From a bacterium (lineage in GTDB: Bacteria; JAJVIF01; JAGGVT01): DNA of 64,000 nucleotides. How positions within the stretch are numbered: position 1 is the first letter of the stretch; each line of letters starts with the position of its first letter. Below are positions 25,972-27,053 of this stretch, in pieces. The translations under genes were made by a program, and so were the position numbers. The notes below the pieces were generated by a model. The model did not search any database. It was given only the letters and a program-made list of their open reading frames with translations, and was not told the origin of the DNA. The stretch spans positions 9,335 to 73,334 of the forward strand of contig JAGGVT010000096.1 of NCBI GenBank assembly GCA_021157815.1, written 5' to 3'.

Positions 25972-26080
25972 TTTGGAGCTCCGAACCTGAGAAATGATAT
26001 ATAAATAACTAATAAGATAGTAACATAGATGGAGTATTTCTCAAAACACTCGCTTTCTTTTTGAAATCGCGATTGAACTC

Positions 26081-26394
26081 GTTGTCATTCCAAGCTTGAC
26101 CTTTCGTTATCATTCCAGGCTTGACCCAACATTGTCATTCCAGGCTTGACCCATTGTTGTCATTCCAGACTTGAACTAACATTGTCATTCCAGGCTTGAC
26201 CCAACATTGTCATTCCGGGCTTGACCCAACATTGTCATTCCGGGCTTGACCCAACATTGTCATTCCGGGCTTGAACTATCGTTGTCATTCCCTGCTTGAC
26301 CCAACATTGTCATTCCGGGCTTGAACTATCGTTGTCATTCCCGGCTTGACCCATAGTTGTCATTCCGGGCTTGACCCGGAATCCATTTAGGAAT
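26081..26394. repeat. Tandem array of about 12 units of a 25-bp REP-like repeat (ATTGTCATTCCGGGCTTGACCCAAC), ending in a complete hairpin unit
   Basis: Units abut directly with no unique spacers. The last unit gttgtcattccgggcttgacccggaatccat matches the dispersed REP at 9142-9173. The array lies 78 bp from the RAYT gene. Confidence 0.85.
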
Positions 26395-26471
26395 GGCAAT
26401 GTGTCATATTATATAACTTTCAGAGTGGCATATTTGGTGTAATTGTGGTCGACAAGCAAGTTGACATAACC

Positions 26472-27053
26472 TTATAGCGCGCCATGAATTAACATAACAC
26501 ACAATCTGGGCTGGCACCGTGGCTGGCACCGTGTCTGGCACCACGGAATCGTGCGACAATCCTCTAATGCACCACCAAACCTGTATCCATGCGGGATAAC
26601 ATCATCATCCCGCAATCCGCAATGGAACGCCGCGCTGCTCCAGATGTAATCCTCGGCATATGCGACAATCCCGGCGCGAACCGGATTCTGCTCAACATAT
26701 CTCATGCAAAGCCACAGATGCTTTTCATCAAGCGCTGTGGAGAAAAAACGTCCCTGCCACAAATGTCCTCTCCATCCCTGCGATTTATTAACCGATTGCG
26801 AATGGCGCGAGTGAACAATATTTAACGTTCGCGCGAGACTGTCGATTTTACGGGGCGTTGCCACTATATGCACATGGTTTGACATCAGGCAGTAGCCGTG
26901 AATCAGCAGATCATACCTGGCGGAATACTGTTTCAGCCAATTGAGATATAGCTTGCGGTCGGCATCGGAGAAGAAAACATTCTGGCGCCTGTTTCCGCGC
27001 TGTGTGATATGATGCGGCACATCTGTAATTACAATTCGAGGTATTCTTGGCAT
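26472..27053 (-). CDS. IS200/IS605-family Y1 transposase, REP-associated tyrosine transposase (RAYT)-like
   Basis: HHITQRGNRRQNVF; HUH motif in YCLMSNHVHIV; GHLWQGRFFS; C-terminal Y in YIWSS; unusual RCQP x3 tail. Confidence 0.85.
   Translation of the reverse strand: MPRIPRIVITDVPHHITQRGNRRQNVFFSDADRKLYLNWLKQYSARYDLLIHGYCLMSNHVHIVATPRKIDSLARTLNIVHSRHSQSVNKSQGWRGHLWQGRFFSTALDEKHLWLCMRYVEQNPVRAGIVAYAEDYIWSSAAFHCGLRDDDVIPHGYRFGGALEDCRTIPWCQTRCQPRCQPRLCVMLIHGAL

Follow-up and report, generated by a model that had tools for sequence, protein, structure and literature searches.

The window analyzed here, a 64,000-nucleotide stretch of contig JAGGVT010000096.1, carries two features in one intergenic region next to a C11 peptidase gene: a tandem array of 25-bp units derived from a hairpin of the repetitive extragenic palindromic (REP) kind and, beyond it, the open reading frame (ORF) of a Y1 (HUH) transposase of the TIRYT type. 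The hairpin array and the TIRYT are two unrelated selfish elements. We consider it probable that the whole arrangement goes back to a hairpin-dimer REP element with amplified half units and to a 3'-truncated TIRYT that was inserted independently of it. The hairpin can be assigned to the CGTC-tagged REP superfamily; what is new here is the presence of a known CGTC/SRM-type hairpin in a truncated-tandem form, in an unusually long array.

Structure of the array and of its terminal hairpin

Eleven tandem 25-bp half units, in direct reading, occupy positions 26082 to 26356 of the + strand and run into a complete CGTC/TGTC-tagged REP hairpin of 30 nt (TTGTCATTCCGGG-CTTGA-CCCGGAATCCAT; 26357 to 26386, + strand), all units from 26082 to 26386 being contiguous, with zero spacers. 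Each half unit is composed of a TGTC tag, the 5' stem arm, the CTTGA loop, 0 to 3 nt of the 3' arm, and a variable tail of 4 to 7 nt; the hairpin that ends the array has the TGTC tag, an 8-bp stem (ATTCCGGG/CCCGGAAT), the CTTGA loop, and a CCA tail. Tandem Repeats Finder run on the window reported 26082 to 26377 with a period of 25, 11.8 copies, and 84% matches. As single-stranded DNA (ssDNA), the terminal hairpin folded at -8.5 kcal/mol (z = -4.0), and the folding of a single half unit was no better than that of shuffled sequences. An earlier note on this DNA had described about 12 head-to-tail units of 25 bp without spacers, the last of which completes a hairpin, and both points were borne out. 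Its distance of 78 bp between the array and the ORF has to be corrected, as 85 bp (26387 to 26471) lie between the end of the hairpin and the stop codon.

The array is bordered on its tag side by the outer flank of the hairpin-dimer element of this lineage, AAATCGCGATTGAACTCG (26064 to 26081, + strand), which is conserved at several sites. Since this 19-nt flank adjoins, on the tag side, both the array and the hairpin copy at 9143 to 9173, the repeated element extends beyond the hairpin. The same flank stands beside a hairpin in a related metagenome-assembled genome (MAG) (L113) and in two orthologous loci, L166 and L168. On the opposite side, a remnant of the inverted partner hairpin, GGAATGGCAAT, was found at 26390 to 26400 (- strand), the spacer and most of the partner being deleted; at the partner position L168 retains a 17-nt spacer and ATGGATTCTGAATCAAGTTAGG, and the alignment shows that it is the window and L166 that have undergone the deletion. 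The following positions, 26401 to 26530, are native intergenic DNA outside both elements, collinear with L168, which has no transposase. The 160-bp stretch leading from the hairpin toward the Y1 gene was considered as part of a mobile element and rejected, since no further copies of it were found and the corresponding part of L168 is collinear.

Sequence changes were unevenly distributed over the columns of the array. Of the 25 columns, the 15 that do not vary across phyla (TTGTCATTCC and CTTGA) had a single change, versus 33 in the other 10 (Fisher 8e-14; at least 14 events versus 1, binomial 2.5e-5). The GGG run, with mostly G-to-A changes, and the junction are candidate hot spots among the variable columns. 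The near constancy of the invariant columns could possibly be due to half-site selection, to repair templated by other genomic hairpins, or to mutational hot spots.

Several other identities of the array were considered and rejected. Rfam gave no match on either strand of 25900 to 27300, even at an E value of 1 or below. A row of promoters is not supported, as the array contains one weak consensus site, no more than shuffled sequences do. A CRISPR array would have unique spacers between the units, and none are present. Nesting of whole hairpins into each other should have left a pile of 3' arms after the terminal hairpin, which is absent. A conserved reverse-strand mini-ORF (ATG..TGA) on the hairpin was also dismissed, because its terminal T is imposed by the search pattern and many arrays end in ...GGAATCTA/C.

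Occurrence of the array without the transposase

Orthologous loci were reached through the members of the protein cluster to which the C11 peptidase of the window belongs. An identical 12-unit array with the same internal variants was present in three contigs of JGI sample 3300016457, and an ENA assembly had 11 units, one of two identical neighbors being missing; the check on unit number proposed earlier thus returned 12 versus 11 between assemblies. Across related populations, the number of half units was 1, 3, 10, or 11. In the related MAG CBDURE01, whose peptidase falls in the same 90%-identity cluster, a single half unit and the hairpin come after the flank, the genes upstream are different ones, and a TIRYT is absent. 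L168 has, beyond the flank, three half units that lead into the complete hairpin, and then the 17-nt spacer and a decayed inverted partner. This locus then continues with native DNA matching window positions 26401 to 26530 and joins the window again at 27255, BLAST placing 22 unrelated nt at the jump from 26530 to 27255. The 724-bp segment that holds the TIRYT remnant (26531 to 27254) is therefore absent, by BLAST, from a related population in which the array is present, from which it follows that the array and the TIRYT are independent. The more distant, syntenic locus L163 has a 197-bp intergenic region without either element.

The same separation was seen from both sides in wider samples. 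None of the 147 loci with the hairpin or an array encodes a relative of the Y1 protein of the window, and no TGTC hairpin was found in the 48 kb around six independent full-length TIRYT relatives. The case calls for caution in annotation: a Y1 transposase beside REP-like hairpins mimics a system of a REP-associated tyrosine transposase (RAYT) and its REPs, yet the two are unrelated elements, and it was the flanks of the protein's relatives together with the "empty site" in a related population that resolved them.

The transposase gene is a truncated TIRYT

The ORF at 26472 to 27053 (- strand) encodes 193 aa of a 3'-truncated Y1 (HUH) transposase of the TIRYT/TnpAY1 subclass 2.1 type. It matched Pfam Y1_Tnp at E = 4e-13 and has NHVH (aa 59 to 62), GHLWQGRF, WQ (W99), RYVEQNP (Y119), and SS (139 to 140), with NHVH and Y119 invariant in a 26-sequence family alignment. 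Proteins of subclass 2.1 are about 238 aa long and are characterized by the motifs NHVH, W[EQ], Y[IV]E.NP, and a proximal SS (PMC6006769, Table 1). The placement of the protein in the RAYT-like HUH/tyrosine class, made earlier from the letters alone, agrees with NHVH, with Y...NP rather than the Y...Q of IS200, and with the Pfam match. An IS200/IS605 identity was rejected on the basis of Y...NP in place of Y...Q, the family length of about 222 aa versus a bare core of about 150 aa in IS200/IS605, and the inverted orientation of the flanking hairpins, which are direct in IS200/IS605; no tnpB-like ORF was found near the transposase among the ORFs of the window.

Profile searches gave scores below the family cut-offs. 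With NCBIfam NF047646 (RAYT, REP_Tyr_transpos; cut-off, 80 bits) the window ORF scored 71.3 bits and a full-length relative, P0001, scored 68, and, in the comparison with IS200/IS605, the window ORF scored 24 bits with NF033573 versus a cut-off of 55. A PDB search with the single ORF sequence returned no match, and the family profile reached E. coli TnpA-REP (4ER8) at E = 8e-5.

The part of the ORF that is homologous to the family comprises 26547 to 27053 (aa 1 to 169), with the truncation at nt 26546; the final 24 residues or so have no family homology, and the conserved C-terminal domain of about 52 aa (R..RT..G.PCG...F...GRPRK) is missing. This domain had no helix-turn-helix match in Pfam. 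Among the best 120 of 4,365 relatives, the length was mostly 213 to 254 aa, three being shorter, and the closest one, P0001, was 94% identical and lies in another gene neighborhood (L001). At the DNA level, L001 is 92% identical to the window from 27112 to 26546, beginning exactly at the hairpin AAAAAGGGGACAGCGCCCTTTT. The transposase has a sigma-70-like promoter, TTGACA-17-TAAGAT (27060 to 27088, - strand; 10/12 matches), 6 nt before the ATG. It is preceded by the upstream terminal inverted repeat or hairpin of the TIRYT, AAAAAGGGGACAGCGCCCTTTTT (27090 to 27112, - strand), at which the L001 homology starts and which folds at -6.1 kcal/mol. The core of this repeat, GGGGACAG (27096 to 27107, - strand), fits the GGGGWSAS described in PMC3733652. 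Its downstream partner was lost with the truncation. The window copy of the TIRYT is immobile as a unit, because both the downstream end and the C-terminal domain are gone.

The homology to the TIRYT ends precisely at a 12-bp repeat, GGCTGGCACCGT, present in 2.8 copies at 26509 to 26542. Since L168 has two diverged copies of this repeat at the corresponding position, the transposon junction is located within or beside a small tandem repeat that is native to the site.

The full-length relatives retain both ends. In L001 and four more independent relatives the gene lies between inverted hairpins with the cores GGGGACAGCGCC, GGGGACGCATCC, and AGGGACAGGCACC, and in a sixth relative (L125-128) the upstream GGGGACGCTACC copy alone was seen. 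Inverted copies of the GGGGACAG repeat enclose the gene in L001, L120/121, and L123/124, with a variant, GGGGACGC, in L122 and L125-128; in relatives, too, a TTGAC promoter box follows the upstream hairpin. Copies of the TIRYT truncated at the 5' end (first 37 and 25 codons, respectively) lie directly upstream of the hairpin of a full copy in L120 (2382 to 2492) and L125 (46 to 120). These nested truncated copies show that the TIRYT element is mobile and suggest that it inserts into or beside copies of itself.

Two further observations concern the terminal repeats of the TIRYT. On a contig from the same sample (L158, 1588 to 2934), the gene of an IS4-type DDE transposase abuts a TIRYT terminal hairpin, and the identity of this contig to the window stops at 27106, representing either a further insertion at a hairpin or an assembly join at the repeat. 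Within the window, GGGGACAGTCCA/AAAAAGGGGACAGTCCA repeats akin to the TIRYT terminal repeat form an inverted pair 76 nt apart at 12195 to 12334. An inverted pair of 50-nt repeats of the same type, 82% complementary (41706 to 41755 and 43088 to 43137), encloses a DegT/DnrJ aminotransferase gene (41820 to 43061), as if it were cargo between transposon ends.

The hairpin in the window and across bacteria

The inverted REP pair that had been pointed out near 9.1 kb, with a different stem and compensatory changes, was recovered at 9095 to 9173. One half of this tags-outside (HH) dimer is a REP hairpin with the stem ATTCTGAA/TTCAGAAT (9095 to 9124, + strand), and the other is a REP hairpin with the stem ATTCCGGG/CCCGGAAT and the tag TGTTAT (9143 to 9173, - strand), followed by the outer flank in inverted orientation at 9174 to 9192. 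Three compensatory changes distinguish the two stems. The motif search gave 15 matches versus 2.1 expected, and 15 was reached in none of 100 shuffles.

An exact search for TTGTCATTC-N4-CTTGA-N4-GAATCCAT was carried out with one genome per species, and the counts for the hairpin family given here and below refer to the matches listed. The frame occurred at at least 118 genome loci in more than 20 phyla, its hosts including Flavobacteriaceae, Planctomycetota, Patescibacteria, Coxiellaceae, Ignavibacteria, Chloroflexota, Zetaproteobacteria, and Actinobacteria. The free 4-nt stem was perfectly complementary in 98 of the 120 copies, with 14 different stems, and the covariation was significant: for 35 distinct sequences, 94.6% of the cells pair, and there were 40 double-sided changes versus 13.5 expected (0/500 shuffles). 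An inverted partner lay within 60 nt downstream of 52 of the 114 hairpins and upstream of 10 of the 114. CGTC-tagged REPs are defined by an unpaired CGTC/TGTC tag, a stem of 8 to 9 bp starting with AT, a loop of 4 to 5 nt, a CCA tail, and predominantly tags-outside dimers (PMC3733652), and the hairpins, with an 8-bp stem and a 5-nt loop, have all of these features. These REPs have no associated transposase and never flank tyrosine transposase genes, and the superfamily includes dRS3 of Neisseria (PMC3733652). Neither the hairpin frame nor the array pattern was found in 2.9 million viral contigs, and a phage origin is thus unsupported.

Half-unit arrays at other loci

A metagenome search for two consecutive half units revealed half-unit arrays at 29 loci, with a period of 22 to 30 bp and up to 6 units; the array of the window is the longest seen. 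All 24 assessable arrays end at the 3' side in a complete hairpin, the half units always being on the tag side. True half-unit duplications are rare, with 2 among 114 hairpins in the unbiased sample. Arrays were enriched where tags face each other (10/28 versus 10/114, p = 9e-4) and depleted in tags-outside dimers (2/28 versus 52/114, p = 1e-4), both tests being optimistic in that orthologous loci are included. One locus (L144, about 1290 to 1440) has two tag-facing hairpins, each with a tag-side half-unit duplication. The unit tails of L144, L145, and L147 duplicate the sequence of the upstream flank beyond a TGA or TCCG microhomology, the outcome that slipped-strand duplication predicts. The array in L149 is formed by a second hairpin type, with a GAAAG loop, and half-site amplification is therefore not confined to the CTTGA-loop family. 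Half-unit arrays are not described in PMC3733652 or PMC11893778, and a literature search for later work added nothing.

Association of the hairpin with GIY-YIG nuclease genes

Among the loci fetched for the hairpin, there were five GIY-YIG genes of about 95 aa, four of which (L012, L078, L148/L151, and L152) are bracketed by inverted hairpins within 4 to 20 nt. The layout is REP(+)-gene-REP(-), and the genes of about 95 aa are single-domain PF01541 genes. In L148 and L152, half-unit arrays lie outside, that is, on the tag side of, the hairpins bracketing the GIY-YIG gene. SsnA is a 94-aa single-domain GIY-YIG nuclease (PMC11893778, 2025). It binds and cuts the NTS (CGTCATTCCCGCGMAVGCGGGAATCYRG; CGTCATTCCCGCG..GCGGGAATCC) as ssDNA only, a few nt upstream of the tag; split half-sites are cleavable when paired with the other half, and related motifs bracket ssn genes across phyla (PMC11893778). 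By analogy, the cognate protein of the window hairpin is most likely a GIY-YIG nuclease of the Ssn type, whose gene would lie in another part of the genome, and not the neighboring Y1 enzyme.

Other repeats and structured elements in the window

Three octamer arrays with about 13 units apiece, (CTAACCTG/CTAACTTA)n, were found at 23801 to 23907, 53620 to 53735, and 57908 to 58017, every one of them following TTTTCCAAC. The two at 53.6 and 57.9 kb are near a hairpin of about 30 nt, ACCCCGGCGAAGGGACGCCGGGTTACAATT (53578 to 53607, 57732 to 57761, and 57820 to 57851), which also occurs in L001 (1548 to 1577), and a similar octamer array follows an orthologue of the C11 peptidase in L162 (2100 to 2190). 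A miniature inverted-repeat transposable element (MITE)-like element of about 210 nt is present in two inverted copies that are 85 to 87% identical (29093 to 29305 and 61243 to 61484), with internal inverted repeats at 29081 to 29109/29274 to 29302 and at 61248 to 61274/61468 to 61494. Further features are a long near-perfect hairpin at 36662 to 36818, with two 68-nt arms that are 79% complementary and 21 nt apart; a large ORF with internal in-frame tandem repeats of 267 bp and a 2,581-bp tandem duplication of a gene segment (71 to 76% identical), within 3131 to 5203 and 44624 to 49104; and a cobalamin riboswitch at 62804 to 62935 (Rfam RF00174; 34 bits, above the gathering score), which is the sole Rfam family match in the window.

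DISCUSSION

In the explanation that we favor, the tag-side portion of about 21 nt of one hairpin would have been tandemly amplified together with a short junction, giving rise to the 11 extra half units. The hairpin may stall replication, and slipped-strand mispairing or unequal exchange at this point may lengthen and shorten the array; growth by slippage is the best-supported route. An Ssn-type GIY-YIG nuclease encoded elsewhere might cut the single strand just upstream of the tag and in this way stimulate growth; a contribution of single-strand cleavage at the tag is plausible. The TIRYT, which has a promoter of its own and has kept one GGGGACAG terminal hairpin, would have been inserted into the same intergenic region later, as an independent event.

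Some of the observations weigh against this explanation. Neutral slippage alone leaves the near constancy of the invariant columns unexplained while the other columns vary. The distance from the TTGA of the loop to the TTGA of the flank is 23 nt, and the period of the array, at 25, is 2 nt longer. No GIY-YIG/Ssn gene was found in the 64-kb window by tblastn or with hidden Markov models (best E = 0.6). The published SRM pattern, HGTCWYN(0-2)YYVSBRHN(0-5)WNVSBRGN(0-2)RNCYNB, is missed by the hairpin at 26357 by one position, in the loop; the copy at 9143 needs two substitutions, and that at 9095 needs more than two. Only 2 of the 120 pan-bacterial copies fit this pattern exactly, and 96 of the 120 do so with one substitution. 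Finally, the two populations in which a TIRYT is adjacent have 10 to 11 half units, and the two without it have 1 to 3; an effect of the Y1 enzyme on the growth of the array is thus conceivable, the difference resting on a single evolutionary event.

That difference in array length is one of the points that speak for the Y1 protein being a RAYT that recognizes the TGTC hairpins, disperses them, and generated the array, as the earlier note had proposed in describing a cognate RAYT/REP system. The hairpin lies only 85 bp from the ORF, the top NCBIfam match is REP_Tyr_transpos, and the top PDB match is E. coli TnpA-REP 4ER8. We nevertheless regard this proposal as highly improbable and largely refuted, since the flanking repeats of the TIRYT family are its own GGGGACAG hairpins, the TGTC hairpins and TIRYT genes do not co-occur elsewhere (0 of 147 loci in one direction and none of the six full-length relatives in the other), the hairpins are associated with GIY-YIG genes instead, L168 has the array at a site empty of the gene, and the window copy is truncated and scores below the family cut-off. 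Published surveys likewise report no CGTC REPs flanking tyrosine transposases and no REPs around subclass 2.1 genes (PMC3733652, PMC6006769). A nuclease-coupled polar growth, in which each half unit would be the footprint of an Ssn-type cut followed by faulty repair or abortive copying, is unlikely; the arrays would then record the activity of the nuclease and the way in which CGTC/SRM repeats multiply. In its favor, the arrays are confined to the tag side, the side of SsnA cleavage, and are found on the outer side of hairpins flanking GIY-YIG genes; the unit junctions, with their variable tails, fall in the expected cut region; arrays are enriched at facing tags and depleted in tags-outside dimers; and the cutting of split half-sites when paired means that each half unit could pair with the terminal 3' arm. 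On the other hand, the window holds no nuclease gene and cleavage is assumed here by analogy, junctions with microhomology, as is typical of plain slippage, occur in several arrays, the enrichment counts, with orthologous loci among them, lack full independence, and half-unit duplications affect only about 2 of 114 unbiased hairpins.

Two other readings concern the array itself. It would be very unlikely for the array to be a selected cis-element, that is, a row of binding sites for a protein reading TTGTCATTCC-N3-CTTGA that acts on the promoter of the adjacent C11 peptidase gene or serves as a decoy for a hairpin nuclease. The near constancy of the phylum-invariant columns in all 12 units while others vary, the position of the array about 40 bp upstream of a promoter-like site of the peptidase gene (26044 to 26017), and the identity of the internal variant pattern in four contigs speak for such a role. 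However, in relatives that share the gene the half units number only 1 or 3, a syntenic relative has none, arrays occur elsewhere in unrelated contexts and with varying frames, and most of the variable positions, in the GGG run and at the junction, may simply be prone to mutation. An assembly artefact or a misassembled repeat is barely credible and was rejected: tandem repeats can be mis-sized by short-read assemblers, and the 11-unit form has dropped one unit of an identical adjacent pair, but the units are otherwise distinguishable, the 12-unit array with identical internal variants recurs in three other contigs, with one unit fewer in a fourth assembly, and related arrays are found in independent assemblies from other samples.

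As CGTC-type repeats have no known transposase, tag-side arrays that change in length offer a concrete substrate for the question of cleavage-driven growth. A broader version of the nuclease idea, to which we give a small but real chance, is that half-hairpin arrays are in general a directional by-product of Ssn-type cleavage at the tag, with one event of cutting and misrepair or of abortive copying per unit. If that were true, the one terminal 3' arm could pair anew with each half unit and so offer a new cleavage register, and the arrays would be an in vivo footprint of transposase-less repeat multiplication and of Ssn activity outside Neisseria. Since the published SRM pattern misses the CTTGA-loop hairpin by one position, the reach of the pairs of Ssn nucleases and repeats is probably underestimated.

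Comparison with known systems

The transposase shares with the TIRYT/TIRtron, TnpAY1 subclass 2.1, and Bertels RAYT group 1 proteins (PMC3733652, PMC6006769, PMC5581495) the NHVH, WQ, Y..NP, and SS motifs. Members of the TIRYT family have in common a length of about 220 to 240 aa, an extra C-terminal domain, GGGGWSAS terminal inverted repeats, and dispersed TIR-like copies in the genome, and the window copy differs from them by being without the C-terminal domain and the downstream repeat. The resemblance to RAYT/REPIN systems (E. coli TnpA-REP 4ER8 and the REPINs of Pseudomonas) consists in a class 2 Y1 HUH enzyme, inverted hairpin doublets, and compensatory stems. Canonical REPs, however, are GT[AG]G tagged and lie on both sides of the RAYT, whereas the hairpins here have TGTC, are on one side, and are absent from the flanks of the protein's relatives. 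The BIMEs of E. coli and the NIMEs of Neisseria are likewise locally clustered REP-type hairpins in intergenic DNA, but in these whole hairpins alternate in inverted orientation with linkers, and in the window the units are head-to-tail, spacerless, truncated, and non-folding.

The closest parallels are with two descriptions of the hairpin itself. The NTS/SRM repeats (PMC11893778) share the frame (C/T)GTCATTCC-stem-loop-stem-GGAATCC, the occurrence of small single-domain GIY-YIG genes between inverted copies, and the upstream tag as the side at which the nuclease cuts; they differ in that the window has no ssn gene and that tandem half-site arrays are unmentioned in PMC11893778, in which the word "tandem" is absent. 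The CGTC-tagged REPs of De Nocera et al. (2013, PMC3733652), with Neisseria dRS3 and Rickettsia RPE-4/6, have the same tag, stem, loop, tail, and HH dimers and, as here, are intergenic, widely spread, and unlinked to tyrosine transposase genes. In that survey head-to-tail arrangements were negligible and clusters were rare, whereas the window has one hairpin with 11 truncated tag-side copies, and the CTTGA-loop frame extends here to more than 20 phyla, versus 5 phyla in that survey.

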